DNA of 64,000 bases. Origin: Candidatus Bathyarchaeota archaeon (GTDB lineage Archaea > Thermoproteota > CALKCG01 > B24 > DRYS01). Below are positions 20,146 to 60,986 of the stretch, in pieces. Location of the stretch: contig JAGTQC010000001.1 of NCBI GenBank assembly GCA_018396535.1, positions 96,001-160,000 on the forward strand, read 5' to 3'. The notes below the pieces were generated by a model that had not been told where the DNA came from, made no database searches, and saw nothing but the letters and a program-made list of their open reading frames with translations. Each line of letters opens with the position of its first letter. The first letter of the stretch is position 1. Position numbers and translations under genes: made by a program.

Positions 20146-20463
20146 TCACCCAAGTTCCATACTTACAAGTTCGAGTATGTTACTATCCCCTGGATCCCTT
20201 ATACCTAAGGCGGATACCGGGAATGGTTTACCACACACTCTACCAAGTTCTATACTCGACCCCTTATAAATGTATATGGGTATTCCTGCAAGTTTACAAT
20301 AGTATGATATGCTATCGGCTAGATCTTTAGGGGTATTCTCAGCTAAAATAACTAGCCTGACCCTCCTGAACATAACGGATTTAAGCGTTGATTTACTACC
20401 TATATATACCCTGCCTGTTCTTACTGCGTTAAGTATCGACCTAGATATCTCAACCGTGGAGAT
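20146..20463 (-). CDS. rpl30e: 50S ribosomal protein L30e, with inferred ATC start at 20463
   Basis: ELG..CGKPF.VS...I.DPG.S motif. The conserved N-terminus (AVRTGRVYIGSKSTLK) is upstream of ATG 20373. The frame closes at TGA 20467-69, and GGAGGT/GGTGA precede the ATC. Confidence 0.92.
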   Translation of the reverse strand: MSTVEISRSILNAVRTGRVYIGSKSTLKSVMFRRVRLVILAENTPKDLADSISYYCKLAGIPIYIYKGSSIELGRVCGKPFPVSALGIRDPGDSNILELVSMELG

Positions 20464-20477
20464 AGCTCACCGACCTC

Positions 20478-23400
20478 CTAGCTTTCATTAGATGATATTC
20501 CCACAGGCTCCATATAAATATCTACAAACCCTGTACCTATTGGAGTTACCTGTCCTACTATTATATTTTCAGTTACACCTTTGAGCTCATCTAGAGCTCC
20601 TCTAACAGCTGATTCCACTATACTTGGTACCGTTATCTCAAATGCAGCTTTAGCTAACGGACTAGGCTTCTGCCCAGCTACTCCATGGCGCCCTATCTGC
20701 GTGATTTTTCCAGTTCTAGTCATCATATCTGCAACAAGCATAACATGTCTCACATCTATATCTAAACCGCCACCTATTCCTTGGAATACATTCATCATCT
20801 CATTTATGATAACAGCTCTAGCCGCTTCTATTCCCAATACATCACAAATTTCGAAGAAATTATTAGTCTCCGTCCTCGACGGATCAACTCCATGAACTTC
20901 GACGACATCTGCAAGGTTAGATCCATCTGCTAGTAGAATCCATTCACCTCTATCCTCAGCTACCTGAATCCTCGCTATACCTTTCACGCCCTTCACGTGA
21001 ATAGATAGTATCTTTGATACCAGTATTCTTAGAGATTGCTCGTCAGCTATCCTGCCATCTCTATATCTAGCTATCACAACACCACGTTCAGGTACTACCG
21101 ATAATTCCACTTCTTTCATCTGAAGTTTATCTGATAGTAAATCGTATGATATACCGCGAGCATTCATCTCATCCACGTTAAGTATAAATTCTATACTACC
21201 AGTATCTATGTCCAGCAGATATTTCGATACTATATCCTTAAATGTTGTATAAACAAGCTCCTGAGCTATCTTAACTGCTTTCTCACGGTCGTAACGATAG
21301 GCTTCGATTAACCTTATAGTCATGATAGGTGTAGACGGTGTTCTACGAGCATCCACAATCTCTATCAATCTAGGTAGACCTAGTGTTACATCCCTTTCCT
21401 TAACACCAGCCCAGTGAAAGGTTCTAAGAGTCATCTGCGTGCCAGGTTCACCTATAGACTGCGCTGCAATTATCCCTACAGCCTCTCCGGGTTCTACCTG
21501 TGCATCTTCATATGCTCTATAAGCTTCTTCTAGTATTCTAGCTACGAGTGTTTTAGATGCTTTAATTTTAATGGATACATCTCGAATATCATCTAGTATG
21601 GATTTAGGTAAAATTTTCTCGAACTTAGATATAAGCTGCTCTATCTCGAATTCCGAAGCAGAAGGCTCCCCTAAACCTATGCCCTTGAGTGTAAGCTCAT
21701 TGCATAATCTAGTTATATTCACAGGTTTACCATGATCACTTTTAGATGGATCGACACCATCCTCACCATATTTAAATTGAACTATAGCACCTAATATATC
21801 GCGTACGGTCCCATCATATTCCACTCTAACAAGTTCTAACGCGTGTATAAGCCTCCTCTGTAAATAACCGCTCTGCTGTGTTCTTACGGCTGTATCTACT
21901 AACCCTTCTCTACCACCCATTGCATGGAAGAAGAATTCTGTAGGAGTTAATCCTTTAAGGAACGAGGATTTAACGAAGCCTCCCGCTTCTGGGTTTGGAT
22001 CTCTAGGTTTGAAGTGCGGCAACGCACGATCCCTTAATCCTCTAGGAACCCTACGTCCTCTCACAGATTGCTGCCCAAGACAAGCAGACATATGCCCTAT
22101 GTTAAGTGCTGAGCCCCTAGCACCAACTCTACTCATTATAACACCTCTATTCTCCATGGTGAATGATGATTCAGCTATTTCATCACATTTCTCCCTAGCC
22201 TTAGCTAGTTCATCCATTATCATTATTTCTAGACTCTCTTCCATGCTTTTACCTGGAAGCTTAAGCAACTTACCTTCCTCAGCTTGTCTTATTATTTCGA
22301 TAATCCTGCGATTAGCTTCATCCAATACTCTACGTATCTGTTCTTCGCTTTCTCCACGCAGTATAAGCTCATCTAAACTATATGAAAAACCTCTCATCGA
22401 AATGAACGTATTCAGGAGCTTACACAGCTTAGTTATGAATATTCTCCCTGCTTCACCACCATACTTCTTTACGTAAACATGTAGTAGCGTATCTGGTTTC
22501 TCTACACCTATAGCACCCTTATCGATAACCCCCTTTATTAGTACACCATTTTTAACGACTATTATACCATCATCAGGACATTCTTCATCTGGGGATGCGT
22601 GTTTATGTTTACATACGGATGATTTGCCAATATAGTTAAAATCTTTAGGTAAAAGTAGACTAAATATTTGTTTACCACTCCATAATGGTTCTGGCTCTTT
22701 AACTATAGGCGGCGGTAAATCGCCCGTATATTCTATAGCAGCTAGGAGCTTCCCAACCTCATCTTTAGTAAGTAAAGTTTCCCTACGAGTTAACAGATAT
22801 CCTGCTGTAAGGTAATCCCTCGTAGCCCCTATTATGGGGGCACCGTATCTAGGGGATATTATCTGTGTCTGGACTTGAGCTAGAATTCTAGCTTCAGCTT
22901 GGGCTTCCTCAGATTGAGGAACGTGAAGATTCATCTCATCTCCATCAAAATCTGCGTTGTAAGGCGTGCATACGGCTAAATGCAATCTAAATGTACGGTA
23001 CGGTAGGACTTTCACTCTATGAGCCATTATAGACATTCTATGGAGTGATGGTTGCCTATTGAACAGAACTATATCTCCATCTCTCAGATGTCTCTCGACT
23101 ATGTAGCCTACATCGAGTTCTTCAGCAATACGCTCCCTATCAGAGAATTCAAGTCTTATACGTCTTCCATCAGGTCTTATAACGTAGACAGCACCAGGAT
23201 GATTAAATGGCCCACGTTTAACAAGCTCCTTCATCTCCTCTATATTCCAAGCAGTAACCTTTTCTGGTACAGTAAGCTTCATAGCTATCTCTAAAGGTAC
23301 ACCGACTTCATCGATTTCTAGGTTTGGATCTGGTGAGATAACCGTCCTGGCCGAAAAATCTACACGCTTACCAGAGAGATTCAGCCTAAATCTGCCTTCT

Positions 23401-24329
23401 TTACCCTTTAATCTTTGAGCTAGAGTTCTAAGTGGTCTGCCAGATCTATGTCTAGCAGGAGGTATACCTGGGGTTTCATTATCAAAATATGTTGTCACAT
23501 GGTACTGTAAGAGATCTGCGAGCTCCTCCCTTATAGCTGTAGGAGCCCCGCTCTCTATACACTCTTTTATCCTTTCGTTTATCCTTACTATATCAACTAG
23601 TTTATGCGTAAGATCATCCTCAGAGCGTATACCGGATTCTAATGTTATAGATGGACGAACTACGAGAGGAGGAACTGGTAATATCTGTATGATCATCCAT
23701 TCAGGACGCGCAACTTCTGGATCAAATCCTAGGAGTCTTAAATCGTCATCAGGTATTCTCTCCAATCTACTCCGTATAGTTGTAGGATCGAGTGATATCC
23801 TTCCTCTTTCGGTAACCTCATAGAAAGACACTGGCTTAACAAACTCTATCTTAACTTGAGGAGACTTACAATGCGGACACTCATATACCTTACTAGCCTT
23901 TTTCACGATGATCCTTCTTAAAGCCTCAGGATACTCCTTTCTCTCTCTCAGTATACGCTTCAATAGCTTATCATATCTAGCTATCTCCTCCTCTGGTAAT
24001 AGTAGACGACCACAATTCCTACAAGTTACAGATAGAAGTTCGTGAACATGTTTCACGAAAGCTACATGAATAACGGGAGTTGCCAGTTTTATAGAGCCAA
24101 AGTGTCCTGGGCATCTAGAAGCAAGGTTGAAACAAGTTTTACATAGCTGTCCAGGTTCGAGGACACCCATCCTACCATCCATTAAGCCTGAAGCGATTGG
24201 CATACCATCTTCATCATATGTATCTGATGTAGTCACCTCTACGACGGAAAGCTTTTGTATATCGGTGGGTGATAGTATACCGAACTTTATACCTGCGATT
24301 CTACACCTAACAATTTCCTCCATACTCAT
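20478..24329 (-). CDS. rpoA1/rpoA2: DNA-directed RNA polymerase largest subunit, fused A'/A''
   Basis: NADFDGDEM catalytic motif and GEPGTQMT (A'' part) in one 1283-aa frame. Confidence 0.97.
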   Translation of the reverse strand: MSMEEIVRCRIAGIKFGILSPTDIQKLSVVEVTTSDTYDEDGMPIASGLMDGRMGVLEPGQLCKTCFNLASRCPGHFGSIKLATPVIHVAFVKHVHELLSVTCRNCGRLLLPEEEIARYDKLLKRILRERKEYPEALRRIIVKKASKVYECPHCKSPQVKIEFVKPVSFYEVTERGRISLDPTTIRSRLERIPDDDLRLLGFDPEVARPEWMIIQILPVPPLVVRPSITLESGIRSEDDLTHKLVDIVRINERIKECIESGAPTAIREELADLLQYHVTTYFDNETPGIPPARHRSGRPLRTLAQRLKGKEGRFRLNLSGKRVDFSARTVISPDPNLEIDEVGVPLEIAMKLTVPEKVTAWNIEEMKELVKRGPFNHPGAVYVIRPDGRRIRLEFSDRERIAEELDVGYIVERHLRDGDIVLFNRQPSLHRMSIMAHRVKVLPYRTFRLHLAVCTPYNADFDGDEMNLHVPQSEEAQAEARILAQVQTQIISPRYGAPIIGATRDYLTAGYLLTRRETLLTKDEVGKLLAAIEYTGDLPPPIVKEPEPLWSGKQIFSLLLPKDFNYIGKSSVCKHKHASPDEECPDDGIIVVKNGVLIKGVIDKGAIGVEKPDTLLHVYVKKYGGEAGRIFITKLCKLLNTFISMRGFSYSLDELILRGESEEQIRRVLDEANRRIIEIIRQAEEGKLLKLPGKSMEESLEIMIMDELAKAREKCDEIAESSFTMENRGVIMSRVGARGSALNIGHMSACLGQQSVRGRRVPRGLRDRALPHFKPRDPNPEAGGFVKSSFLKGLTPTEFFFHAMGGREGLVDTAVRTQQSGYLQRRLIHALELVRVEYDGTVRDILGAIVQFKYGEDGVDPSKSDHGKPVNITRLCNELTLKGIGLGEPSASEFEIEQLISKFEKILPKSILDDIRDVSIKIKASKTLVARILEEAYRAYEDAQVEPGEAVGIIAAQSIGEPGTQMTLRTFHWAGVKERDVTLGLPRLIEIVDARRTPSTPIMTIRLIEAYRYDREKAVKIAQELVYTTFKDIVSKYLLDIDTGSIEFILNVDEMNARGISYDLLSDKLQMKEVELSVVPERGVVIARYRDGRIADEQSLRILVSKILSIHVKGVKGIARIQVAEDRGEWILLADGSNLADVVEVHGVDPSRTETNNFFEICDVLGIEAARAVIINEMMNVFQGIGGGLDIDVRHVMLVADMMTRTGKITQIGRHGVAGQKPSPLAKAAFEITVPSIVESAVRGALDELKGVTENIIVGQVTPIGTGFVDIYMEPVGISSNES

Positions 24330-24333
24330 CCTT

Positions 24334-27300
24334 CTACGACACCTCCTCTACCAAAAGCCTAGGAGCTATGCACAAACTCATAAGCTCTTGAAGTAGAAGT
24401 TTGAATGCATAAGCTACGGTTATAGGGACTATCTTAGCCTGATCTCCACAAATATGACACTTATACTCTCTACGTCTATTATCATAATATCCTAGGAAAC
24501 CGCAATTCTTGCACACATATATAGTTGTAGCATCGGATTCCTCTAACAATCTGTCCTTAAGTAATGCTGCAGCACCGTGAGCTATCAAGCAATCTCTCTC
24601 CATCTCACCAAACCTTAAGCCACCACCTCTAGCCCTTCCTTCAGTAGGTTGACGCGTAAGCATTTGCACCTGCCCTCTGGCCCTTGCATGTATCTTATCG
24701 GCAACCATATGATGAAGCTTCTGATAGTATACGACACCTATGAATATATCGGCTTCAAACTTGTATCCAGTAGTCCCATCATACATTATCTCTCTACCGC
24801 CATACCTAAAGCCGAGCTTTCTAAGAATTTCATCAAGTTTATCTGCAGAATCATTTATGAAAGCCGTCCCATCTACGAATCTGCCAGTTATAGCTCCTAT
24901 CTTACCGGCTACAGATTCCATAAGTTGTCCTACGGTCATCCTAGAAGGTATGGCATGCGGGTTTATTATGATATCTGGGACTATACCATCCTCTGTGAAC
25001 GGCATATCCTCCTGTCTAAACACTACACCTATCACACCTTTCTGTCCATGCCTAGAAGCAAATTTATCTCCAAGTTCAGGAATTCTAGGCTCTCTAACTT
25101 TAACTTTGGCTATTCTATTACCCTGGGCATCCGCAGTTAATATTACTGTATCGACTATAGCGGATCCTCTAGATTTAAGCGAAAGAGACGTATCTCGACG
25201 AGATAGACCATAGACGCCTAATTCACGATATTCCTCCATAAATCTCGGAGGACTTGTTTTACCTACAAGAACATCACCAGTTGAAAGTTCACACTCAGGG
25301 TAGGTTAGACCATCAGGTTCAAGCTTCATGTAATAGCTTTCACCTTTATAGCCTTTCGTCTCTGGTGATGGGACCTCGAACCTATCAGTTTCCCCACCCA
25401 TATACTGGTAGCATTCAGCTTCATATGTCTTGAAGAATGTAGATCTCATCAGACCCCTATCTATAGACGATTTATTAAAGATTATAGCGTCCTCCATATT
25501 ATATCCAGAGTACGATATAATCGCTACTACGACATTCTGTCCAGTAGGCCTCTTATGATAGCCCATAATTTCCATGGGTTTAGTTTGAACTATAGGTATC
25601 TGTGGATAGTGTAGTAGATGCCCGCGACTATCTACCCTAAAGTAATAGTTTGTGGCATAAACTCCTAGGGCTTGCTTAGCCATAGCTGCTTCATAACTAT
25701 TTCTTGGAGAATGGTTATGCTCGGCATAAGGTATTAGCGAAGCACATACACCGAAAATCGTGTATGGAGCTATTTCTAAATGAGTCGTCTCTTCGGAGAT
25801 ATCCTTGTAACTTAAAGCTACTAGACAATTTTCCTCCTCTTCCGCATCTATATATTCTATCACACCCGTATAGATTAAATCATCCCATGTGATTAGACCC
25901 TTCCGTAAAGCTTCTATATGTTCTCTAGTAAGTAGAGGATACCCGTTCTCTACGACTATAAGTGGCCGTCTACATCTTCCTGAATCACAATTTATGTACA
26001 GTTCTTTAACATCTTCAAAATATGCTACATTGACCTCTGGACTTAACTTTCCAGCTCTTCTAAGTTTTTTAAGTTCTCTAATTAGTTCTTTAGGATTATA
26101 TGTGAAACCAAATGGAACACCATCTATATACACACGGGGAGCATTAAGTTTAATGGTACGGTCTGCTTCATCGAACGGTATACATCCGAGCTTAACTAGA
26201 ATTTGTTTAACCTCTTCCACATCAGCTGAAACGGATATATTTGCCATTAAAGCTAGGTTCTTAACTAAACCACAGTTGGATCCTTCAGGTGTTTCGTTAG
26301 GACAAAGACGGCCCCAATGAGTAGAATGTAGATCTCTAGCTTCGAAATTTGGCTGGGTACGACTTAGTGGCGATTGAAGCCTTCTAAGATGACTTAACGT
26401 TGATATAGAATTTGTCCTATCTAAAAGCTGAGTTACACCAACTCTCCCACGTCCCCAGTTCCCTGTAGCTAGAGCATGCTGAATACGTTCAGTCAATATG
26501 CTAGGTCTAACGATCGATCTTAAAGGTATAATTCTACCTTTCTCTAGTTTTCTGTAGAGCTTCTCGAGTTGATAGCTCATATCCTTAACTAAATCCCTGA
26601 ATACTGTTCTGAATAGATCTCCTAGAAGTTGACCTGCAAGTCTTATACGTTTATTAGCATAATGATCTTTATCATCCTGCTTTCTTAAACCTAGACGTAA
26701 TTCTATGATTCTTCTAACCATTTCTGCAAGGAATATTGCTTTAACTCTCCTTGAATCGGGGGTTCTACCTAGGTGTAGGAGGAAGTTTCTATCTAGTATC
26801 ATTAAGGCTCTATTTTTACGTCTCTCAGGAGATTGCGCGAACGCCACACGATTTCCTATATATATTAAGGCATCATCCTGTGTATCTATGCCTGACACTT
26901 TATCAAAAGATGGTTCAAGCCACTGATATATATTGGGATCTAAAGATACAAGTTCTGCTATCTCTCTATCTTTCTCTATACCAAGAGCTTTCATAACTAC
27001 AATGAAAGGCAGTTCTACAGGAACACTCGGCATGGAAACTGTTATTGTTCCATCCTTTTTCATCTTAACTTCAACTTTGGTTCTGTAGCCTATTATGGTG
27101 GAGAACACTTTTGCTCGATATATCTTTGTGTTATCGTCGTAGTCTACTAATATGCGATTAGGTGCTAAATCTTCTATACCGACTATAATTCTTTCTGAAC
27201 CATTTATTATGAAGTACCCTCCTGGATCCTCGGGATCCTCACCTATAGATATAAGCTCATCTTCGGTCATCTGGCTTAGAGGACATATTCTGGATTTAAG

Positions 27301-32987: not shown

Positions 32988-33049
32988 CCTTATGGGTTGA
33001 AAAGGGGAAAACCTTAAAGATAAGCTTAGATCTAGTAGAGGCTAGTAAG

Positions 33050-33127
33050 GGGCCCGTAGCTCAGCCAGGATAGAGTGCCGGGCTTTTAACCCGGTGGTCA
33101 CGGGTTCGAATCCCGTCGGGCCCGCCA
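33050..33127 (+). tRNA. tRNA-Lys(UUU), CCA encoded, no intron
   Basis: GGGCCCG acceptor stem, CCGGG-CTTTTAA-CCCGG anticodon arm, GTTCGAATC T-loop. Confidence 0.97.
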
Positions 33128-33436
33128 ACCCTCTACTAAAGCATGACGAAAAGTAACATCTTACTCTAGTTTAGACCATAAATCCTTACTAACAGAATAC
33201 ATGAAGTAATGCATTTTAAAATAATGTAAGCTGTATATCGTACCTGAGGTTAGATATAGAGGCTGCATAAATTTTGAGGATTGGTATAGGTTATGATTAT
33301 AAAAGTTAAGTTGAAGGCGTAATCTAAAGACATAGAGGAAAACTAGAATTACGAGTTACAGTTCTCGCAAAATAACGTTTTCGAAATATCTATATTATAG
33401 CTACCAACTCTGACAAGCTTTGTAAACAGGTTGAAG

Positions 33437-34252
33437 TTATATAATAGATCCTGTATGACGCCGATTCCACTCTTCTATTCTATCCGGTGAGGAGTATATG
33501 TTGACGCGCCCTTCCCTAGCAAATCCTATAAGAGTTAAACCGAAGGTTTCAGCTATCTTTACACCCATACTTGTAGGAGCTGATAACGAGACTAGAATAG
33601 GTATTTTCATCTGAACAGCTTTTATAACTATTTCTGAAGAAAGTCTGCCAGTAGATGCAAGTAGTAGTTTACTAAAATCTAAATTCTTCATCGCAGCTTC
33701 ACCGATAGCTTTATCGATAGCGTTATGTCTACCTATATCTTCGGCAAATGCCACTACTCTACATTCTTCATCTATCAAGGTAGCTGCGTGAGTCCCACCC
33801 GAAACTTTAAAAATAGATGATTTAGAATTTAGTATATCAACTGCTTTAAGAATTGTTTCAATGCTAAATATAATTTTATTAAACCTTATTTTTTGTATAA
33901 CCTCTAATATATGTGACGGAATGCTTTCACTACTATAAAATATAGATATTAATGTTGGTTTTTTAAAGAAATTGAAAAATTTTTCTTCGGATAATTTAAC
34001 ATATGCATTCTTTTCAGAAAACCTAATTTCTAAAATATCTCTAATATCATCTATAATACCATTTGTTAATAGATAGCCTATTATAAGTTCTTTAATCTGC
34101 AAAGGAAGGCAATGGAATGTGACACAGAGATTATTGTTAATGTATAAATTTATGATAGCTTCGACAGCTATAACATCTTTTAAAACTTCAAAATCCATTT
34201 TAGTTTGATTAAATCTTAAAATCTCATGTTCAATAAGCATCTTCTCACCCAC
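33437..34252 (-). CDS. fdhD: FdhD/NarQ sulfurtransferase (formate dehydrogenase accessory protein), Cys loop apparently missing
   Basis: GGTHAA, EDIGRHNAIDK.IG, TGR.SSE and SAPT motifs. Confidence 0.88.
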   Translation of the reverse strand: MGEKMLIEHEILRFNQTKMDFEVLKDVIAVEAIINLYINNNLCVTFHCLPLQIKELIIGYLLTNGIIDDIRDILEIRFSEKNAYVKLSEEKFFNFFKKPTLISIFYSSESIPSHILEVIQKIRFNKIIFSIETILKAVDILNSKSSIFKVSGGTHAATLIDEECRVVAFAEDIGRHNAIDKAIGEAAMKNLDFSKLLLASTGRLSSEIVIKAVQMKIPILVSLSAPTSMGVKIAETFGLTLIGFAREGRVNIYSSPDRIEEWNRRHTGSII

Positions 34253-34746
34253 TCCTAGGGTCTACGACTGAATACTCTCTTCAATCCAAAGAAGGCCTTA
34301 ATAAATTTTTAACTATCACTATCAGTGAATCTACAATATCATATATAGTTTATGTAATAGAAGTGGATGTGTAAACTTTAAAATAATGTTAGCTACATTT
34401 CTATCAGATAATACTTTATTACTCTGAATTTTATCAACGATAATTAATAACTATTGCTTTAAACAACCAATGTTTATTGCAGATGATCAGCTGGCTATAA
34501 TTTACATCAACTGACTAGTAGAATGTTACAAGCAAGTTGAAGATTAGTTGAGATTGCTAGTTAAGCTAGCCTCTACCTTAGATACGTACAGGGGTAGACT
34601 AATGTGTAGACTTTATTTTTGATGAGAAAGAATTGTAGCCCATACTCTATATCGATGAATGCTCTACTAGTAATCCTTTGTCAATACGTTGGCGATAAGA
34701 ATTTAAGAACGATAGATACTTACTTCAGAGATTTTGGGATGAAACA

Positions 34747-35676
34747 ATGAGTCTCCAATCTAGTCTGATAGATAAGATTCAAAAGTTAAAGCGTGAAAAG
34801 AGGGCAATTATACTAGCTCATAACTATCAACGTCCAGAAGTTCAAGATATCGCGGATTTTGTCGGAGATAGCTTAGAATTATCCCTATATGCGATGCAGA
34901 CAGATGCCAGAACGATAGTTTTCTGCGGTGTAAACTTCATGGCTGAAACAGCTGTGATCCTAAACCCAGATAAGAAGGTTCTCATACCGGATATCAATGC
35001 TTTATGCCCAATGGCTTCAATGCTACCAGCAGATCTAATGAAGCTGTATAGGCGTAAGTATCCTAAAGCGAAAATCGTTCTATACATAAATAGTCTAGCC
35101 GAAGCTAAAGCCTACTCTGACGCGATATGTACATCGGCTAACGCAACTGAAGTAGTAGATCAAATAGATTCTGAAGTAGTCCTATTCGGACCTGATATAA
35201 ACTTGGCAAGATATGTACAGATGAAATCTAGTAAGAAGATAATACCGATACCACAATATGGCTTCTGTCCAGTACATAAATTATTCAGTAAGAGAGAGGT
35301 TTTACGTTTAAAACAGATTTATCCAGATGCCGAGGTTATGGCGCATCCTGAGTGTGATCCTGAAGTTTGGGAAGTTGCGGATTTCATCGGTAGCACATCT
35401 AAGATGTATGCAAGAACACTAACGTCTAGAGCGAATAAATTTATCGTAGCTACTGAAATAGGAATATTGCATAGATTGAAGAAGGGTAGAAATGATGCGA
35501 CATTCATACCAGCCTACGAAGAAGCTATCTGCGTAAACATGAGACTTCACACTCTCGAGAAAGTTTATCTTTGTCTAAAAGATGAAAAATATGAGGTAAA
35601 AATTCCAGAAAAAATAGTAGCAAAAGGACGAGAACCAATAGAATTTATGTTTAAGATCCAAAAATACAAAAAATAA
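34747..35676 (+). CDS. nadA: Quinolinate synthase
   Basis: LAHNYQ, FCGV.FMAE, three Fe-S cysteines (CPMA, CPVH, CVNM) and HPEC. Confidence 0.96.
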   Translation: MSLQSSLIDKIQKLKREKRAIILAHNYQRPEVQDIADFVGDSLELSLYAMQTDARTIVFCGVNFMAETAVILNPDKKVLIPDINALCPMASMLPADLMKLYRRKYPKAKIVLYINSLAEAKAYSDAICTSANATEVVDQIDSEVVLFGPDINLARYVQMKSSKKIIPIPQYGFCPVHKLFSKREVLRLKQIYPDAEVMAHPECDPEVWEVADFIGSTSKMYARTLTSRANKFIVATEIGILHRLKKGRNDATFIPAYEEAICVNMRLHTLEKVYLCLKDEKYEVKIPEKIVAKGREPIEFMFKIQKYKK

Positions 35677-35779
35677 TAAATTTATTGTACTTTGATGATG
35701 ATTATTCCAAATATATTCTAACTTACTATCTATACGTTTTAACTATAAGTAATTATAATTTTTACATTGTTATAATTTT

Positions 35780-36598
35780 TTATTTATCATTAATTGTTGA
35801 TTTCTTGAGGATCCTAACGTATTTTTTAAGCTTTGACAGCATTTCTATATCGTTATTAATATTACCTTCTATAATTTGAATTATTTTACTTCCAACTATC
35901 GCACCATCAGCTCCGTTATCGATGATGGCTCTAATATGGGATGGCTTAGATATCCCAAAACCTACGGCTATGGGTATTCTTCCGTTGGATATCGAGGAGG
36001 CTCTTCTTATAAAATTGATACTCTCTTTCCTAAGCCTTTCTCTAGCACCTGTAACGCCGAATACTGAAACTAGATAGGTGAAACCTGAAGAGTATTCGAT
36101 TATCTTCTCTAGACGTTCATCCGATGTAGATGGTGCAGCGAGGAATATGGTAGCTACATCGTATCTATCAGCTACGGCTCTATACTCCGAGGACTCCTCG
36201 ATAGGCATATCTGGGACGATTACACCATCGATTTTATTCTCTCTAACATTATTAAAGAAATTTTCTAATCCCATCCTGAATATTATGTTATAATATGTTA
36301 ATATAATGATCGGTATATTTGGATGCATTATATGAATTCTTCTAGCTAAATCTAGAACCTTAGATGGCCTTACACCAGCTTTTAATGCTCTTAAAGTAGC
36401 ACGTTGGATAACTGGTCCATCAACTATCGGATCTGAAAACGGTATGCCAAGCTCGAGCATATCGATTCCACCTTCGATTAGTGCATGGACTATCGCTAAT
36501 GTATAGCTTAATGTTGGATCCCCACATATGATAAATCCTATTAACGCGCCTTCACTACGCTTCTTCAAATTCCTAAATTTTTCTTCTATAAGCCTCAT
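35780..36598 (-). CDS. trpA: Tryptophan synthase alpha chain
   Basis: [20 protein letters not shown] and VGFGI motifs. Confidence 0.95.
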
Positions 36599-37794
36599 AT
36601 CCTAACACCTAGACATTTTGCAATAACTTCAACATCCTTATCTCCTCTCCCAGATAACGTGACAACTATTATATCATCTCTACTCATATTTGGTGCAATC
36701 TTCATAGCGTAAGCCAGTGCATGCGAAGGCTCTAAAGCTGGTATTATACCCTCACTCCTCGATAACTCAAGGAAGGCGTTTACAGCATCCATATCTGTTA
36801 CAGCCACATACTTAGCACGCCCTATTTCCTTTAGGAACGCATGTTCAGGACCAACACCGGGATAGTCTAGACCAGCTGATATACTATGTGTTGTCATTAT
36901 TTGTCCATCATCATCCTGCAAGATATACGTTCTCATACCATGGAAGATACCTTCTGAGCCAGCGCAGAGAGAGGCTGCATGCCTTCCAGTCTCTATACCC
37001 TCGCCTGCGGCTTCAACACCGTACATCTCAACATCTGGATCGTCTAAGAATGGGTAAAACGCGCCTATAGCATTGCTGCCACCGCCAACACAGGCGATTA
37101 ATACATCCGGTAGCCTACCCTCCTTCTCTAGGATCTGCTTCCTAATCTCACGCCCTATAATGCTCTGAAAATCTCGGACGATCATTGGGTAGGGATGTGG
37201 CCCGACAACAGAACCTATGAGATAGTATGTTGTCTGAACATTAGTAACCCAATCTCTAAGGGCTTCATTAATCGCATCTTTAAGGGTCTTTGAACCTAAT
37301 TCAACTGGATGAACCTTAGCGCCGAGAAGCTCCATCCTAAAAACGTTCAATCTTTGCCGCTTCATATCCTCAGAACCCATGTATATCTCTGCCCTTAAAC
37401 CTAAAGCAGCACAGGCCATAGCCGTAGCAACACCATGCTGGCCTGCACCTGTTTCAGCTATCACCCTCTTTTTACCCATCCTCTTAGCTAAGAGGGTTTG
37501 CCCAATAGTATTATTTATTTTGTGTGCACCACCATGAGCTAAGTCCTCACGTTTTAGGTAAATCTTAGCCCCACCAAGCTTCTTGGTTAGGTTCTTCGCA
37601 TAGTATAGTGGTGTTGGTCTTCCAGCGAACTCTGAAAGATAATATCTTAATTGCCTCTGAAATCTCTTATCCTCCTTTGCTAATAAATATGCTTCTTCAA
37701 GCTCCATGAGAGCCGCTATGAGGGTTTCGGGAACATATCTACCTCCAAATCTACCATACTTCCCATCTATCGGATACTCGCTTAGCTTAGGCAT
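36595..37794 (-). CDS. trpB: Tryptophan synthase beta chain (TrpB1 type)
   Basis: KREDL.H.GAHKINN (PLP Lys), AETGAGQHG and [11 protein letters not shown] motifs. Confidence 0.97.
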
Positions 37795-37798
37795 TTCC

Positions 37799-38310
37799 TC
37801 AACCCTCTCTTAACTCTAATAATGAGGGAATACTTTCATATCTAGTTCTGAGATAAAGCTTAACGCTATTAGAGGTAATGAGTGTAGATAGTTCGACCGC
37901 AAATATCGTGCTTCCGACATTCTCAAGCCTTAGACCGTCAGCCATTATAACCAACTTAGGATGCAACATACCTCCAACCCCTCTACATATAGATCACTCA
38001 TCGACAAGCTATCTATGAAACATAGAGTATCACCTTTCAAAGTAGTATATGGATCAGCCTCTATAGCTTCTATAACATGTACTCTTCTAAAGATCTCATC
38101 CATATCTTCGAATAATTCCCTGCGAATTTCGAGAATTTGTTCAAGGCTTTTGAAAGCTGTGACCATAACCCCTATGACAAATAGTAAGACAGCTTTCAGG
38201 AACTTGAAGATAACGAAACTGAATAAGTCTATCCCAGCCTTAACCGAGATGCCTACATCCTCCAGCTTAGTTATCTCATGTATCTCAACTCTAACTTTCC
38301 TCATAGGCAT
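37799..38310 (-). pseudogene. trpF: Frameshifted, degenerate phosphoribosylanthranilate isomerase
   Basis: N-part RKVRVEIHEITKLED.....AGID matches VKICGIT..ED...AGAD with the Cys lost. The C-part is in another frame, HPKLVIMADGLRLENV (= P.ILAGGL..ENV), ending at TGA 37799. It sits in the trpF position between trpC and trpB. Confidence 0.8.
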
Positions 38311-39097
38311 TCACCAAACTAGCAACGAATTCTCTGATATCTACAGCAGACATAATGGCTGTACCAACTAGGAAAGCATCTACACCACATCTCTTCAAAA
38401 AGCGTACATCATCCGGCGATCTTATACCACTCTCACTAATGATCGGCCTATTTCCTATCTCAACTCTACTAAACTTCTCTAGAACATTTTTTGTCGTATT
38501 TATGTCGACTTTAAATGATCTAAGATCCCTATTATTTATTCCAATCATATCTGCGTCTGTCGATAAAGCTGACCTAAATTCTTCTATATCATGAACTTCG
38601 AGTAGAACTTCAAGCTTTAGTTCATGGGAAAAGTTTATCATACTTTCAATATCTATCTCGCAGTATCCCCGTTTAAAGAGCCCCATTATTAGGAGAACTG
38701 CGTCAGCGCCTAAAATGTATGCAGCATCTATCTGGCATCTGCTTAGGATTATATCCTTCATGAGTATGGGAACATTAACTAGTGAACTGACCTTAGCTAA
38801 GGTTTCAAGCGAACCCGAGAAATATCTCGGCTCAGTTAAGATAGATATTCCTACAACCCCCGCTTCAACCATATCCCTAGCTATACCCTCAACATCTCTA
38901 TCAGTTCTCAAAAACCCGGATGATGGAGATGAAAACTTAATCTCCGATATTATAGCAGCCCTCCTACAACTTAGTATAGCTTCCTTCAGACTTTTTCTAG
39001 GACGTTGGATAAGCTTGGTTACGGAGCTGACATTATAATATCCGCTTTCTATATTCTCTACGGCTGCTTCTGCTAGAAGATCGAGGAAGTCACCCAT
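38291..39097 (-). CDS. trpC: Indole-3-glycerol phosphate synthase
   Basis: ISEIK..SPS.G, SILTE..YF.GS, LMKD, GINNRDL and SESGI motifs. Confidence 0.95.
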   Translation of the reverse strand: MGDFLDLLAEAAVENIESGYYNVSSVTKLIQRPRKSLKEAILSCRRAAIISEIKFSSPSSGFLRTDRDVEGIARDMVEAGVVGISILTEPRYFSGSLETLAKVSSLVNVPILMKDIILSRCQIDAAYILGADAVLLIMGLFKRGYCEIDIESMINFSHELKLEVLLEVHDIEEFRSALSTDADMIGINNRDLRSFKVDINTTKNVLEKFSRVEIGNRPIISESGIRSPDDVRFLKRCGVDAFLVGTAIMSAVDIREFVASLVNAYEES

Positions 39098-40151: not shown

Positions 40152-40738
40152 AGCTCCTTCACCCATTTTAGAAAATTTCCAATAATCTTCCTACCCTCGT
40201 TAGTCAGTATGGATTCTGGATGGAACTGTATCCCTTCTATCGGATAGGCCCTGTGCCTAACTCCCATAATCTCGCCATCCTCAATGGATCTCGCGGTAAT
40301 CTCGAAACATGGTGGCAAGGAAGATTCATCGCAGACAAGTGAGTTGTATCTTGCAGCCCTAAATGGGTTTTCCACATTTTTGAAAATCCCTCTTCCATCA
40401 TGCAGTATTAGACTTACTTTCCCATGCATAATCCTCTTAGCCGGAATAGTCCTTCCGCCGAAGACACATACTATTCCTTGATGACCCATACCTATACCTA
40501 AAGTTGGCACCTTAATACTCAAGTTCAACAGAATCTCTGGACATACTCCAAAATACCTTCTATCAGTCGGTTTTTCTGGTCCAGAAGAAATAATTATCCT
40601 ATCTGGGTTAAGCCCCATTACCTCCTTCAAAGTTATCTTGTTAATTCTCCGCACTAATGGTTCGTAGCCTAGCTCGCCAACATAATGGGCTAGAATATAT
40701 ACGAATGAATCATAATTGTCTATTATAAGAACCTTCAT
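40148..40738 (-). CDS. trpG: Anthranilate synthase component II with catalytic Cys replaced by Gly
   Basis: IDNYDSF and QFHPES are present. The nucleophile elbow reads LGIGMGHQ instead of LG(V/I)CLGHQ. Confidence 0.9.
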   Translation of the reverse strand: MKVLIIDNYDSFVYILAHYVGELGYEPLVRRINKITLKEVMGLNPDRIIISSGPEKPTDRRYFGVCPEILLNLSIKVPTLGIGMGHQGIVCVFGGRTIPAKRIMHGKVSLILHDGRGIFKNVENPFRAARYNSLVCDESSLPPCFEITARSIEDGEIMGVRHRAYPIEGIQFHPESILTNEGRKIIGNFLKWVKEL

Positions 40739-40754
40739 CTAAACCCCCTTCTAA

Positions 40755-42080
40755 CTAATGATCAGACATCTCCAGAGCCTTCATTAGGGCTTTAGCTTTA
40801 AACTCTGTTTCAAACCATTCTCCCTCAGCCGTGGAGTCAGCAACTATACCGCTGCCGACCTGTATATGCAACCTGTTATCCTTAGCGAATAAAGTGCGTA
40901 TAGTTATCGCAAAGTCCATATTACCATTATACGAGAAGTATCCTACAGCACCAGCGTAGGGCCCCCTGCGAGTATATTCAAGCTCCTCAATAACCTCCAT
41001 AGCTCTAACCTTTGGTGCACCAGATACTGTACCAGCTGGAAAGATTGCTTTAAATACGTCGAAGCGATCACAATCTTCTCTAAGTTTCCCAATAACCTTA
41101 GAAACCATATGCTGTACATGACTGTATCTATAAATTTTCATAAATTCTGCAACTTTTACGCTACCAAATATTGAAACTTTACTTAGATCATTTCTAGCAA
41201 GATCTAAAAGCATTATGTGCTCAGACACCTCCTTTGGATCTTTAAGCAGTTCATTCTCTAAGATACGATCTACTTCTGGATCACCAGTTATGGGTCTTGT
41301 TCCAGCTATAGGGTAGGATTCGATTAAACGATCTTCTACTCTAACGAGAGTTTCCGGGCTTGAGCCTATTATGAAGCGATTTCCCATTTTGAGAAAATAC
41401 ATGTATGGTGAGGGATTTATCATTCTTAAATTTAGATAGAATCTTTGGAAATCACCCTTAAAGTTTGAACTATATCTTTTAGATAAGACGACTTGAAATA
41501 CGTCTCCTGAGGAAATATACTCCTTAGCTTTATCGATAAGCCTGTTATACTGATCTCTCTCGATATTTAGTCTAGGCGTTGAAAACGATAAGCTAACTGT
41601 ATCTACTTCTCTATTAAGTCTTTTTACAATTTCACTATACCGATCATTACCTCTATAGAAGTAGAATGCTTCACCAGTCATATGATCGACAATTATGCCA
41701 TCATCGTACACGCCCATCTCGATATCTGGAAAACCTAGATCATCTATAGAAATATTCGGCAAATTCTCCCAGTAACGTACGGCATCATAAGAGATATATC
41801 CAACCGCTCCACCGATATATCTAAAGTATCCATTACAGGGCTGATATGAATCAATCAAAGACTTAATAACGTACATTGGATCACCAACCTTTAGACAATC
41901 TCCAGCAATACGTGCAACCCCATCCTTAATAGTTAACGTTAACTCTGGTTCAAAGCCTATGAAGGAGAATTTACCCCTATCACCATCAATGGACTCAAAG
42001 AGGAATACATAATCGTAGTCCTCGTAAAGCTTAAAGAAGATATCTGACGGTTGCATCCGTGGAAGCTTCTTAAAGCTCAC
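40755..42080 (-). CDS. trpE: Anthranilate synthase component I
   Basis: NPSPYM, SSPE, PIAGT, EH.ML.DLARND, PAGTVSGAPK and GIVADS motifs. Confidence 0.95.
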   Translation of the reverse strand: MSFKKLPRMQPSDIFFKLYEDYDYVFLFESIDGDRGKFSFIGFEPELTLTIKDGVARIAGDCLKVGDPMYVIKSLIDSYQPCNGYFRYIGGAVGYISYDAVRYWENLPNISIDDLGFPDIEMGVYDDGIIVDHMTGEAFYFYRGNDRYSEIVKRLNREVDTVSLSFSTPRLNIERDQYNRLIDKAKEYISSGDVFQVVLSKRYSSNFKGDFQRFYLNLRMINPSPYMYFLKMGNRFIIGSSPETLVRVEDRLIESYPIAGTRPITGDPEVDRILENELLKDPKEVSEHIMLLDLARNDLSKVSIFGSVKVAEFMKIYRYSHVQHMVSKVIGKLREDCDRFDVFKAIFPAGTVSGAPKVRAMEVIEELEYTRRGPYAGAVGYFSYNGNMDFAITIRTLFAKDNRLHIQVGSGIVADSTAEGEWFETEFKAKALMKALEMSDH

Positions 42081-42179
42081 AGGTTCATAATCCCTACGTC
42101 TAAGCTTTCTTAGAACACCAAACTAGATCACCCATACACATCACCATTCATAACAGCTGAAGATGTGATACAAAGAACT

Positions 42180-42216
42180 ATTTAAATCTTCTTTGAACAA
42201 AAATGAACAATGAACA
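42180..42216 (-). promoter_or_regulatory. trp operon promoter: TATA (TTTAAAT) with purine-rich BRE, preceded by three TGTTCA hexamers
   Basis: Plus-strand tgaaca at 42194, 42204 and 42211, and tttaaa at 42181-86, about 100 nt upstream of trpE. Confidence 0.5.
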
Positions 42217-42339
42217 TACATCCATAAACAATACCATCCATCACAGAACACCACATAGATAATAACGGTTACCCCTCTACGAAACATATCGATTATCAGT
42301 CTTAAAGATTAATCCATAATAGTATCTCATTATCAGGTG

Positions 42340-42690
42340 ATAATTATCCTCCCATATTTGAAAATGATACAATATTTTACTCAAAGGATACGCTTTCAAA
42401 AATAGTGGGAGGAGGAAGGTATATTATCTAAAAGACAATTTACGATGCCAGCAGAGATAACATTGAAGAAGCTTTAGCATCAGATAATGTTGAGGTTTGG
42501 ATAAATATGATAGTTATATAGATAATCAGAGAGAACAGTTAATATTGTAAGAATAGAAAAAGAGGGGCAAGTAGCGCTATTACCGGCTGGAGGTATGCTT
42601 ATAGAGATAGATTCTCTGTGTTAAACTCTGAGATAATCGATTTTGAAGAGAAGACCTGGTAGAGATAGACGCGGACCATGCATGAATATG
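42340..42690 (+). pseudogene. Heavily decayed fragment resembling the C-terminal half of thioredoxin reductase
   Basis: Broken frames LSKI...YII*...EEALASDNVEVWIN.IV and TVNIVRIEKEGQVALLPAGGMLIEI resemble TrxB '...V..V......L.VDGVFIEIG'. Confidence 0.35.
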
Positions 42691-42802
42691 GATTACTTAG
42701 GAGTGTATGCTATTGGAGATGTAACAAGTATACCTGAAAAGCAGATAGTAGTTGTTACCTAATGGGAGATGTAAGGCAGCGCTATCAGTTTTCAAATACT
42801 TT

Positions 42803-42890
42803 TGGTGCGGGGGGTGGGATTTGAACCCACGAAGGGCTACCCCACAGGGTTCTGAGCCCTGCGCCTTAGACCAGGCTTGGCTACCCCCGC
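42803..42890 (-). tRNA. tRNA-Leu(CAG), long variable arm, CCA encoded
   Basis: GCGGGGG acceptor stem, CAGGG-CTCAGAA-CCCTG anticodon arm, GTTCAAATC T-loop. Confidence 0.97.
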
Positions 42891-43653
42891 TCCGAGTTCG
42901 TGAGTATTCCATGCTATTCTCAGATTTAAGCTTTGAGAGTGTACCTATCTCCATCTGGATTAACTCTTCCATAAATTATTTGAGAAACTTGTTTATGGAA
43001 TCTGAATCTGAGGAGCCCCATCTTAAGGACTTCTCTAACCCTATCAGAGACGGCGAGGTTGAAGAAAACCGACTTAAGCATGCTTGATATATCGTTTCCG
43101 AACCTCGGACTAAGTATCGATACATAATAGATCCAATATTTAATCCTTGAGCTTTACTACTCTTATCCTCCTCTGAATTCGTCGGAAATCTCGTTAGGAT
43201 TTATTTCTCTTGATTTCGATGGAAAGAGTGGTGAAATTGCTGGTCTAGATGGAGGAGGTGAGATATATGCATCGATATATACGGCTTCTATCTTCTCTAA
43301 TTCATCGGTGGATGTAATGGTTCATCTTCGATTCATCTTAGGCTATCTCTATATTCCCTCTAGCTGATCGAGAATTAGTGCTTCGTAGATATTGTCCAGT
43401 AGTTCTAGCCTCCGGATGAGGGGCTTCTGAAGTATCTTCGGCACAGGCTTATAGCTACTTCTACGCATCGTATACTGGAGTATCGATAGGGGCTCGCCCA
43501 CGAGATTCTTCAACATTTTAGAAGCTGATTGATGAGTCATTTCTGAACTGTGCATTTTAGATTAAGCTTAGCTACTCTGCATTTCACCAGGTATTTATGG
43601 CGAGGAATTGAGGGAGGATTTAGGTTTATTCGAATGATGTGAATTCTAGGTGA

Positions 43654-58455: not shown

Positions 58456-58457
58456 AA

Positions 58458-59357
58458 TCATAAACCCAGCATAGAAGCTACATACTCAGGATCATACTCC
58501 ACTAGATCATCTAGACTTGAACCTACACCTAGAAAGTATATAGGCTTCTTAAGCGTATATGCTACGTTAAGTATAGCTCCACCCTTAACATCTGCATCCA
58601 CCTTTGTTATCACAGCTCCATCCACACCTACATAGCTATCGAACTCCCTCGCCTGATCCACTATACTATTACCTGTGAGGGCGTCACCTACGAATACACT
58701 CATATCAGGGTTTACAACTCTTACAATCTTCCGCATCTCATCGAGGAGATTACGCTTAGTCTGCATCCTACCAGCAGTATCTATGAGGACGACATCCATC
58801 TTCCTCGCTCTAGCATATTGTACAGCATCAAAGGCTACGGCTGCAGGATCGCTTCCATAAACCTGCTTAACTAGATCTACACCCACCATCCTAGATAGTA
58901 TCTCAAGCTGCTCGATCGCCCCAGCTCTAAACGTATCGCTACAAGCTAATACAACTCTAAACCCCCTACCCCTAAGCCTCCACCCAATCTTAGCTATAGT
59001 TAGAGTCTTACCTACACCATTAACACCTAGAAATAACACTATATACGGTTTAATAGATTCCTCTACAACTTCATCGAACCTTTTATCAGGCTTCACCGAT
59101 TTAAGAATATCGAGAATCGATTCCCTCAATACAGATTCCACCATACCTCTCCTATCAGAGAATCTACTAATCCTTACACCTGTAATCCTATTCTCGATAG
59201 AGCTGCATAGAGCTTCGGCTACATCTAGAGCTACATCCGCTTCTATAAGCGAGTATTTTAGCTCATCTAGATATCCATGTATATCCTCAGGTTTAAGCTC
59301 TACCTCTACTATTACACTCCTAAATCTATCTAGAGCTTTCCTAATAGCTTCAAGCAG
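58458..59357 (-). CDS. ftsY: SRP receptor FtsY, with inferred CTG start at 59357
   Basis: GVNGVGKT, DTFRAGA, DTAGR and TKVD..KGG motifs. The N-domain (L.EADVA..VAE) lies upstream of ATG 59144. The frame opens after TAA 59382. Confidence 0.93.
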   Translation of the reverse strand: MLEAIRKALDRFRSVIVEVELKPEDIHGYLDELKYSLIEADVALDVAEALCSSIENRITGVRISRFSDRRGMVESVLRESILDILKSVKPDKRFDEVVEESIKPYIVLFLGVNGVGKTLTIAKIGWRLRGRGFRVVLACSDTFRAGAIEQLEILSRMVGVDLVKQVYGSDPAAVAFDAVQYARARKMDVVLIDTAGRMQTKRNLLDEMRKIVRVVNPDMSVFVGDALTGNSIVDQAREFDSYVGVDGAVITKVDADVKGGAILNVAYTLKKPIYFLGVGSSLDDLVEYDPEYVASMLGL

Positions 59358-59799
59358 TCCTCCCGCCCTCCATAGACCTACTTAACTCTGCAAGCCTCCT
59401 CCTAGCTTCCTCCAGCTTCGCGATAACGTTAACTAACTGCTGCTGTAGGTTATCTCTAAACTTCAATATATTGTTAGCCCTCTCCTCTATTATCTTAATA
59501 GCATCATCAACCTTCTTCTCTACATACACGTTACCACCCATATTTAACAAGACATTCTCCACATCGATTATAGTACACTTGATATACGATCCAGAACCTA
59601 TCGACACCAAAGCCTCTATATTAGGCTTCTCATTCTTAAGAGCATTAAGTGTATCGCATGTCTGCCTATGCTCGCTATAAGATGCTTCAGCTAAACTCAA
59701 CCTCTGCCTAATACTCTCCGCAGTCTGCTCTAGTATCGATATCTCTGCTACTAGCTGCTCCAACTCCTTCTCTATCCTACTACGACTATCCATCCCCAT
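59350..59799 (-). CDS. pfdA: Prefoldin alpha subunit
   Basis: Coiled coils flanking LVSIGSGSYI...V...G...YVEK. Confidence 0.93.
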   Translation of the reverse strand: MGMDSRSRIEKELEQLVAEISILEQTAESIRQRLSLAEASYSEHRQTCDTLNALKNEKPNIEALVSIGSGSYIKCTIIDVENVLLNMGGNVYVEKKVDDAIKIIEERANNILKFRDNLQQQLVNVIAKLEEARRRLAELSRSMEGGRTA

Positions 59800-60020: not shown

Positions 60021-60701
60021 TTACTCCTCTATACGAAAAGCTTCTGTTACACGAGCTAGCTCCGAACCCCTAGTATTATCGCTTACTAGAAGCCCATAGC
60101 TATTCGCTACTACACCTATCTTAATAAGGCGGCTTCCATAATTCACCGTACCCTTATAGACAGGAACCTTTAACAGATTCCTAATGAGATCCTCCTCCTC
60201 AGATAATATCATCGGATCGACTAGAACCCCTCTATTAGTTGCAACAGCTAGACTACCTGTATAGGGTAGATTCTCTATACTACCAGTTTCAACCTCTATA
60301 TCTAGCGTATCCGATATCACCCTAACCTGCTCCCTAGATAATCTTAGACCAGAAATGCATCCCAAATCGTTTACAAGAAGAAAGTTACCTATAGCAGTCC
60401 ACTTAGTAGGTAGAACATCAACCCTTATATCACCAGGTATAGAAGCCTTTATCCTCTCAAACTCATCATCACCTACCAATGGTGAGAGAAGGATGCCTCT
60501 AGAGTTAGCAACCGTAAATATACCTAGAAGATCTGACTTATAGACTGTAGTTTTAACAACCGTATCGACTTTAAAAGTCTCTAGGAGTAGTTTAACATCC
60601 TCATCCATAGTGGATTCTGGACATATAACAAACCTATCTGTTACCCTAAAGTATATACCTATACAGGATCTACCATAGAAGCTGTAGTGGGATACCGGCA
60701 G
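60021..60701 (-). CDS. eif6: Translation initiation factor 6, with inferred CTG start at 60701
   Basis: ANS.G, GN....ND, GTVN.G and G.EL motifs. The conserved first repeat (FYG...IGIY...TD) is upstream of ATG 60608. Confidence 0.92.
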   Translation of the reverse strand: MPVSHYSFYGRSCIGIYFRVTDRFVICPESTMDEDVKLLLETFKVDTVVKTTVYKSDLLGIFTVANSRGILLSPLVGDDEFERIKASIPGDIRVDVLPTKWTAIGNFLLVNDLGCISGLRLSREQVRVISDTLDIEVETGSIENLPYTGSLAVATNRGVLVDPMILSEEEDLIRNLLKVPVYKGTVNYGSRLIKIGVVANSYGLLVSDNTRGSELARVTEAFRIEE

Positions 60702-60707
60702 AAGAAT

Positions 60708-60986
60708 CTACACCCCCTCTACAGGGTATACCGTATATATATTCTCCTCCTTCACAACCCTAACCTTCACTCTACGAGGAGGCTTCTCCCTCCCCCTACT
60801 CCATATCAATCTATTCAATTCGTTAGATATCCTTACACGCTCCTCCTCTACGTTCACTTTAAGATGGCGCTTGATAAACTCCCTCACTATCTTAATAGCT
60901 GTCGGAGCTCTATCAGTCCATGGAGCTCTCCACGCATCTCTAAGAGGGATCGTATATATCCTCTCCTCGGTAGAGCTATCACTCAT
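60708..60986 (-). CDS. rpl31e: 50S ribosomal protein L31e
   Basis: ERIYTIPL, RA..AIK.VREF..RH and N..IW.RG..KPP motifs. Confidence 0.96.
   Translation of the reverse strand: MSDSSTEERIYTIPLRDAWRAPWTDRAPTAIKIVREFIKRHLKVNVEEERVRISNELNRLIWSRGREKPPRRVKVRVVKEENIYTVYPVEGV

Follow-up and report, generated by a model that had tools for sequence, protein, structure and literature searches.

Only a handful of genes in Escherichia coli use near-cognate start codons. For archaea, the reviewed set of start codons comprises AUG, GUG and UUG only, and the initiation factor aIF1 has been reported to reject AUU in Sulfolobus (PMC4705826). Our literature search found no paper describing frequent initiation at CUG or AUH in archaeal genomes. 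Here we analyse a 64,000-nucleotide stretch of the genome of a Candidatus Bathyarchaeota archaeon (C1:96001-160000 of genome G000; hereafter the window) that carries three genes, rpl30e (ribosomal protein L30e), eif6 (aIF6) and ftsY (FtsY), whose conserved N termini lie upstream of any ATG, GTG or TTG (hereafter canonical starts). It is likely that all three genes are intact and start at AUC, CUG and CUG, respectively, behind a spaced Shine-Dalgarno (SD) sequence, and that CUG is a routine minor start codon of the order to which this archaeon belongs.

The G000 genome is 1.41 Mb in size, in 14 contigs, with 41% G+C and a completeness of 93%. Orthologous rpl30e, eif6 and ftsY loci were compared across 30 related genomes. 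The congeners of G000 are G001 and G002, giving three species in the genus. For genome-wide work we used nearly the whole genome of G001 (1.46 Mb; about 78% amino-acid identity to G000), which yielded 1160 orthologous stop-to-stop open reading frames (ORFs), together with 0.80 of the 1.85 Mb of G011, a member of another family of the order (median identity 50%). The anti-SD sequence was assumed from the enriched GGAGGTG motifs of G000, not read from 16S rRNA. The three genes, their SD sequences and the genes directly upstream are arranged as follows.

20146..20463, minus strand: rpl30e coding sequence, from ATC (20463-20461) to the stop codon (20148-20146); 105 amino acids; NF002172.
20473..20479, minus strand: SD sequence AGGAGGT of rpl30e; SD run of 7, aligned spacing of 10 nucleotides to the ATC; overlaps the rpoA stop codon TAG (20480-20478).
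20478..24347, minus strand: rpoA (unsplit), upstream of rpl30e; Rpb1 domains 1-5; stop codon 14 nucleotides before the ATC.
60021..60701, minus strand: eif6 coding sequence, from CTG (60701-60699); 226 amino acids; PF01912.
60711..60719, minus strand: SD sequence GAGGGGGTG of eif6 (GAGGAGGTG in G002); aligned spacing of 11 nucleotides to the CTG; directly before the rpl31e stop codon TAG.
60708..61001, minus strand: rpl31e, upstream of eif6; PF01198; stop codon TAG (60710-60708) 6 nucleotides before the CTG and in the same frame.
58458..59357, minus strand: ftsY coding sequence, from CTG (59357-59355); 299 amino acids; TIGR00064.
59367..59371, minus strand: SD sequence GGAGG of ftsY; aligned spacing of 9 nucleotides to the CTG; within the 3' end of pfdA.
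59350..59799, minus strand: pfdA (prefoldin alpha), upstream of ftsY; PF02996; stop codon TGA (59352-59350) overlaps the ftsY start by 8 nucleotides.

Read codon by codon, the start regions are AGGAGGTCGG-TGA-GCT-ATC(20463)-TCC-ACG-GTT-GAG in rpl30e and GAGGGGGTG-TAG-ATT-CTT-CTG(60701)-CCG-GTA in eif6; that of ftsY is TGGAGGGCGGGAGGA-CTG(59357), or TGG AGG GCG GGA GGA CTG CTT GAA GCT ATT AGG. The first in-frame canonical codon is ATG 20373 in rpl30e, ATG 60608 in eif6 and ATG 59144 in ftsY, and its use would cost 30, 31 and 71 codons, respectively; there is none between the upstream stop and these ATGs. The family-defining N terminus begins 1-9 codons after the in-frame stop in all three genes. 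Matches to the L30e, aIF6 and FtsY profiles begin at profile positions 2-6, on residues 5-12 of the stop-to-stop ORFs, and the conserved N termini therefore lie upstream of any canonical start. The matches are strong and close to full length: the L30e profile NF002172 scores 120 bits (cut-off 77), with profile positions 2-99 on ORF residues 5-102; eIF-6 (PF01912) aligns positions 2-196 of 197 with ORF residues 8-205, and aIF6 (TIGR00323) scores 171.3 bits (cut-off 137.75); FtsY (TIGR00064) scores 294.2 bits (cut-off 260.7), and the SRP54 N-domain is matched as well. The pre-canonical segments have 66-90% amino-acid identity to the congener, with nucleotide differences concentrated at third codon positions. 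Each of the three genes is single-copy in G000.

The original prediction, made from the sequence of the window, held that these N termini precede the first ATG, GTG or TTG, and proved exact in every coordinate and in the losses of 30, 31 and 71 amino acids. It also stated that the proteins need the missing segments; a start at the downstream ATGs would take away 30 of about 100 residues of the L30e fold, blade one of aIF6 and the greater part of the FtsY N-domain. Its description of SD-like motifs before starts that sit at or near upstream stops stands: the SD spacings are 10 (rpl30e), 11 (eif6) and 9 (ftsY) nucleotides, compared with a peak of 7-10 and a mode of 9 among ATG genes of G000.

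It had further proposed aligning orthologous loci, asking whether the same position carries a canonical codon in some genomes and ATC or CTG in others, and this comparison bears it out for eif6 and ftsY; for rpl30e the ATC is kept in three species. The arrangement of all three genes is common to the three species of the genus. In eif6, all three read TAG-(ATT or GAT)-CTT-CTG-CC, with the first ATG 33 codons in. At the position of this CTG, other families of the order have TAG-TTG-CCT or ATG-CCC, G011 has GTG, and the next residue is Pro or Ser; each of the 13 outgroup genomes with the gene offers a canonical start, either at the aligned N terminus or upstream of it. ATT, the eif6 start used in one NCBI record, was rejected as a candidate: it is GAT in both congeners, while the CTG is kept.

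The comparison reaches furthest for ftsY. The GGAGG-to-CTG spacing of 9 nucleotides is common to G000, G001 and G002, and the CTG aligns with the ATG of G019, G025 and G027 and with the TTG of G023. Outgroup FtsY N termini at this position read M-L-E-K-L-K, M-F-E-R-L-K and M-F-N-R-L-K, and the outgroup genomes with ftsY all offer a canonical start. Within the order, 7-8 of the 14 genomes having ftsY lack a canonical start for it, in four families (G000, G001, G004, G005, G008, G006 and G009; in G002 the sole canonical codon is a poorly placed TTG within pfdA). G004 has CTG where its sister has TTG, G005 and G008 read CTG-TTC-GAA, and genus g6 has a GTG start two codons upstream. GTA and CTA were also considered as ftsY starts and rejected: neither is near-cognate, both fall within pfdA, and no SD stands at a workable distance from them.

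In rpl30e, the ATC of the three species stands 10 nucleotides after GGAGG or GGGGG in each, and every outgroup genome with rpl30e has a canonical start to use. The case for homology to the orthologue start is weaker here than for eif6 and ftsY, with the ATC within 2 residues of those starts. Three codons past the ATC, 19 nucleotides from the SD, both congeners have a GTG, for which G000 has GTT (20454). For rpl30e of G000, a non-canonical start is unavoidable, with ATC the best candidate and ACG 20457 a weaker one.

The original prediction had extended these three cases to relaxed start selection throughout the lineage and proposed a genome-wide count of genes whose homology extends 5' of the called start. 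That count was run on the 1160 ORFs, and it upholds the extension. Only codons unshared with any other ORF were considered, and nucleotide differences were tallied by codon position; a comparison of the window with shadow ORFs left in was uninformative. In 45 of the 1160 ORFs, at least 15 unshared conserved codons precede the first canonical start, with differences in the ratio 330:271:704 over the three codon positions. Gene bodies give the same pattern (2317:1763:4664), and these upstream segments are therefore coding. Upstream matches of 5-15 codons to G001 gave about 1:1:1 and were discarded as non-coding.

Three classes make up the 45 ORFs: near-cognate starts that follow an SD, ORFs that resemble second exons, and genes broken in G000 only. 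Near-cognate starts account for about 17-19 of the 1160 compared genes (about 1.5%). About ten are CTG starts: ftsY, eif6, the stalk protein P1 (whose ORF contains no canonical start codon at all), MetRS, Rad50, a LivG-type ATPase, a PHP phosphoesterase, a TIM-barrel isomerase, a metallophosphoesterase and an ABC-2 permease. ATC serves rpl30e, PdaD and probably PolD DP2; ATA serves a DUF488 protein, a GNAT acetyltransferase (with no detectable SD) and S17e, the last (11 upstream codons) drawn from the list of shorter matches; ATT serves a LysE-like protein and ACG a GH4-like enzyme. Within the window the share is 4 of 55 genes, the fourth being tyrA.

The geometry of these starts is strict. 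Aligned SD spacing is 9-10 in 15 of the 19 proposed starts (15 of the 17 that have an SD run of at least 4), whereas ATG genes spread over 7-10. Enrichment computed over all pre-canonical codons was noisy, because the SDs of nearby canonical starts intrude, and was replaced by restricted sets. The 27 unsplit ORFs contain 501 pre-canonical codons, 21 of which have an SD run of at least 5 at 9-10 nucleotides, and 8 of these 21 are CTG. Put the other way, 8 of the 14 CTG codons in this set have such an SD, compared with 0.59 expected (about 14-fold). Across the 1160 N-terminal windows, a strong SD at 9-10 nucleotides precedes 10.6% of ATG, 12.6% of TTG, 7.9% of CTG, 3.0% of ATC and 2.4% of GTG codons, against 1.8% of background codons. 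The excess over background at this spacing is about 80 for ATG, 39 for TTG, 8 for CTG, 4 for ATC and 1 for GTG; at a spacing of 7-11 it is 136 for ATG, 65 for TTG, 8 for GTG and 6 for CTG. CTG is thus about as frequent as GTG among the SD-led starts of G000. TTG makes up about 30% of strongly SD-led starts in this genome, about half as frequent as ATG, and GTG is barely above background.

In four genes (P1, the TIM-barrel isomerase, LivG and the ABC-2 permease) the CTG of G000 is TTG at the homologous codon of G001, and in the GNAT gene the same codon is ATA in G000, GTG in G001 and ATT in G011. The obvious mutational route is a first-position C-T transition in a genome already rich in UUG starts. 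In the compared part of G011, homology extends upstream of the first canonical start by at least 15 codons in 12 of 435 ORFs. It does so by at least 8 codons in 18, which include an AroA gene, with CTG at an SD run of 7 and a spacing of 9, and a GPN-loop GTPase gene with its P-loop ahead of any canonical start. Together with ftsY, these cases indicate that the trait is order-wide.

The reading that we favour can be put in mechanistic terms. The start codon would be one base away from AUG (AUC in rpl30e, CUG in eif6 and ftsY), and the ordinary initiator Met-tRNA, with anticodon CAU, would pair with two of its three bases. The terminating ribosome of the upstream gene would be delivered -8 to +14 nucleotides from the start in all three genes. 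A lineage that tolerates C as well as U and G at the first codon position could then use CUG as a routine minor start.

Several points weigh against this reading. The analysis shows the gene structures, their conservation, the SD geometry and the genome-wide frequency, whereas decoding of the near-cognate codons by Met-tRNAi, and its efficiency, are inferred. The anti-SD is only assumed: the small-subunit rRNA was not found in the G000 assembly (RF01959), nor was the 16S 3' end in the compared parts of G001 or G011. The eif6 SD spacing of 11 sits at the outer limit of what is normal. A CTG-TTG exchange is also a synonymous Leu change and is by itself no proof of start function. The ancestral rpl30e start could be the GTG of the congeners, with ACG 20457 an alternative near-cognate start in G000. 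Finally, cbf5 exon 1, tyrA, a LeuA-like gene and a CooC-like gene lack a codon with a single mismatch where one would be expected, and TTA or GTT stands there instead; the near-cognate rule is incomplete.

A wider claim, to which we give somewhat less than even chances, is that the initiation machinery of the order no longer discriminates against a C in the first codon position. CUG would then be a regular fourth start codon, as frequent as GUG, present in ftsY since before the families split and swapping freely with UUG, and its cause would be a change of the lineage in aIF1, aIF2 or the 16S P-site and not a series of gene-by-gene accidents. The original prediction had suggested inspecting aIF1 and the initiator tRNA for substitutions. 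The initiator tRNA of G000 is standard, present in one copy with a canonical A1:U72 pair, a GGG:CCC anticodon stem and the anticodon CAU. aIF1 (SUI1) was found in all but one of 30 genomes searched and is intact in G000; the genus does have two specific substitutions, one placing Val at a site of the loop-1 region that is usually basic, the other exchanging the Glu of the I-I-E-G-I motif for Asn. Families with a CTG ftsY outside the genus keep the usual residues, however, so that the genus substitutions do not track the trait.

The alternative that survives best is a variant of our favoured reading, in which initiation occurs by termination-reinitiation only: the ribosome that ends rpoA, rpl31e or pfdA would stay on the mRNA and restart at the nearest acceptable codon, the upstream gene setting the level. 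We regard this as possible, if on balance doubtful. The starts lie -8 (ftsY/pfdA), +6 (eif6/rpl31e; set by hand, as rpl31e was masked by a shadow ORF) and +14 (rpl30e/rpoA) nucleotides from the upstream stop, and 12 of the 19 near-cognate starts lie within 20 nucleotides of an upstream same-strand stop, compared with 28% of canonical genes. In archaea, short overlaps including -8 support coupling, which drops sharply beyond very short distances (PMC10666635). By these distances, the 8-nucleotide overlap of ftsY fits a coupled pair, eif6 is borderline, and rpl30e is borderline to marginal given the steep fall-off. However, 7 of the 19 starts are not near a called upstream stop (for example MetRS at +100, PdaD, GH4 and S17e), and all near-cognate cases but one carry their own SD, which pure reinitiation would not need. 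Coupling to the upstream stop is enriched among near-cognate starts, not required.

The remaining alternatives fare much worse. Initiation at CUG with Leu-tRNA has been reported in mammals, and the CUG starts might likewise be decoded by the elongator tRNA-Leu(CAG), giving an N-terminal leucine. We consider this improbable. The tRNA-Leu(CAG) of G000 does share the GGG:CCC anticodon stem, but such stems are common among the ordinary elongator tRNAs of this thermophile (Lys, Asn, Cys, Leu), and this tRNA is class II and begins with G. A genome-wide pattern search of anticodon stem-loops in G000 found no initiator-like tRNA with an anticodon other than CAU. Starts at ATC, ATA, ATT and ACG occur as well, and a single mismatch-tolerant initiator explains them all.

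Slightly less credible still is initiation at the first downstream ATG, with truncated proteins or decaying genes and the upstream similarity reflecting no more than conserved DNA. Prodigal-type gene calls (JGI/IMG, ENA, Logan) give exactly these truncated products, with an aIF6 of 195, an FtsY of 228 and an L30e of 75 amino acids. Such starts would, however, remove the segments described above from single-copy, essential genes; these segments have the third-position pattern of coding sequence, and the arrangement is kept to the depth of family and order. NCBI records already extend the products, inconsistently: on this contig L30e has 105 amino acids (M-STVEISR, from ATC) and aIF6 has 228 (from ATT), another assembly has an aIF6 of 226 (from CTG), and FtsY has 299 (M-LEAIRKAL, from CTG). 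The expectation that automatic annotation truncates the proteome of this lineage thus holds for the JGI/IMG, ENA and Logan calls and fails for the NCBI records; the sequence facts are implicitly, and inconsistently, in public annotation already.

Recoding is very unlikely, whether as read-through of the rpl31e TAG into eif6 or as an upstream exon joined through a tRNA-type intron. The rpl31e TAG and eif6 do share a frame, and G000 does contain ORFs without starts that resemble second exons (aIF5B, SAM synthetase, cbf5). But rpl30e is out of frame with rpoA and ftsY with pfdA, the upstream genes end too close to the starts (14, 6 and -8 nucleotides) to leave space for an exon or intron, family f2 has a TTG start directly after the same TAG, and no suppressor or Pyl tRNA was found with ARAGORN. 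A sequencing or assembly error, with ATG or TTG misread as ATC or CTG, might be suspected in a 14-contig metagenome-assembled genome in which some genes elsewhere are broken relative to the congener, and is excluded for practical purposes by the same codons in both congeners (for ftsY also in three further families) and by the recurrence of identical products on as many as 10 independent contigs of various origin.

Other genes of G000 have odd starts or structures. The fourth window gene without a usable canonical start is tyrA:

3160..4026, minus strand: tyrA (prephenate dehydrogenase); first ATG (3927) inside the GxGxxG loop.

It overlaps the end of a pheA fusion gene. Its candidate starts are ATT 3993, ATA 3972 and TTA 3957 (the last TTG in G001 and TTA in G002), and NCBI records of the species give lengths of 255 (ATG), 270 (ATA) and 277 (ATT) amino acids. 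TTA, two mismatches from ATG, stands at the TTG start of relatives both here and in cbf5 exon 1 (G000:C1:62638-62874, plus strand); it follows an SD by 8 nucleotides in cbf5 and a weaker SD-like AGGT by 4 nucleotides in tyrA. GTT replaces the GTG of relatives at 20454 in rpl30e and at G000:C1:93399 in a LeuA-like synthase gene (G000:C1:93399-94952, plus strand), in which 79 codons including a DTTLRDGEQ motif precede any canonical start. In a CooC/MinD-like ATPase gene (G000:C1:10669-11457, minus strand) the P-loop does so. No recognizable SD with a near-cognate codon was found at either gene; a TATA-like box lies just upstream of the LeuA-like gene, whose mRNA may be leaderless.

The ORFs among the 45 that resemble second exons are those of aIF5B, SAM synthetase, cbf5 and a radical-SAM gene. 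In both G000 and the congener, aIF5B (G000:C12:4066-5712, minus strand), SAM synthetase (G000:C8:171078-172223, minus strand) and the radical-SAM gene (G000:C11:41491-42336, plus strand) begin mid-domain right after a stop; on this sequence pattern they resemble the second exons of mRNAs with introns, not start-codon cases. A NuoE/NuoF-like gene (G000:C13:56983-59867, minus strand) and a URO-D-like gene (G000:C7:190042-190849, plus strand) are split into several ORFs in G000 and continuous in G001, and are probably pseudogenes or local assembly problems. In the window, rpoA is one frame of 1289 codons and, unlike in most archaea, is not split into A' and A''. The region at about 33000-43600 of the window, bounded by tRNA-Lys (about 33050) and tRNA-Leu(CAG) (about 42800), has weak or no synteny with the congeners. 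Identity is 41-67%, to G001 only, and most of its ORFs lack a match in G002; the region may be a variable island.

If CUG and AUH starts are routine in this order, which is widespread and uncultured, then a few percent of its proteins are truncated or missed by gene calls restricted to ATG, GTG and TTG, core proteins such as FtsY, aIF6, L30e, MetRS, P1 and Rad50 among them, and these errors would distort family alignments, structure predictions and completeness estimates. The lineage would also offer a natural experiment on start fidelity in initiation of the aIF1/aIF2 type, with a tight dependence on an SD at 9-10 nucleotides.

Near-cognate starts are a known kind of start. The novelty lies in how frequent they are here, in the rank of CUG, in the strict SD geometry and in the conservation in core genes at the level of an order. 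The bacterial cases (AUU of infC; CTG, ATT, ATC and ATA in NCBI translation table 11) likewise combine a single-mismatch codon, the initiator tRNA and an SD, and are likewise mis-called by gene finders limited to ATG, GTG and TTG. In E. coli, the efficiency of ATT is about 0.3% of that of ATG (Hecht 2017, as quoted in PMC10666635). By contrast with bacteria, about 1.5% of genes are concerned here, CTG is no rarer than GTG among SD-led starts, and the factors are the archaeal aIF1 and aIF2, not IF3. No autoregulation of the infC kind is evident; aIF6 is an anti-association factor and not a start-codon fidelity factor.

Closer to hand, archaeal UUG and GUG initiation (PMC4705826) also involves a first-position mismatch to CAU on SD-led mRNAs, and TTG is very common in this genome; the difference is that essential genes here use CUG and, less often, AUC, AUA, AUU or ACG. 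In eukaryotes, too, CUG is the preferred non-AUG start, and the fidelity factors are homologous (eIF1/aIF1 and eIF2/aIF2). However, eukaryotic CUG initiation works by scanning and Kozak context and mostly yields alternative isoforms, whereas the CUG described here would be the sole start, placed by an SD duplex at 9-10 nucleotides. Archaeal termination-reinitiation (PMC10666635) shares the operon-internal position, overlapping the upstream stop or a few nucleotides from it, and ftsY has its -8 overlap. That work concerns canonical starts, with non-canonical ones named solely as something that might produce odd overlaps, whereas a third of the near-cognate starts found here are not closely coupled.

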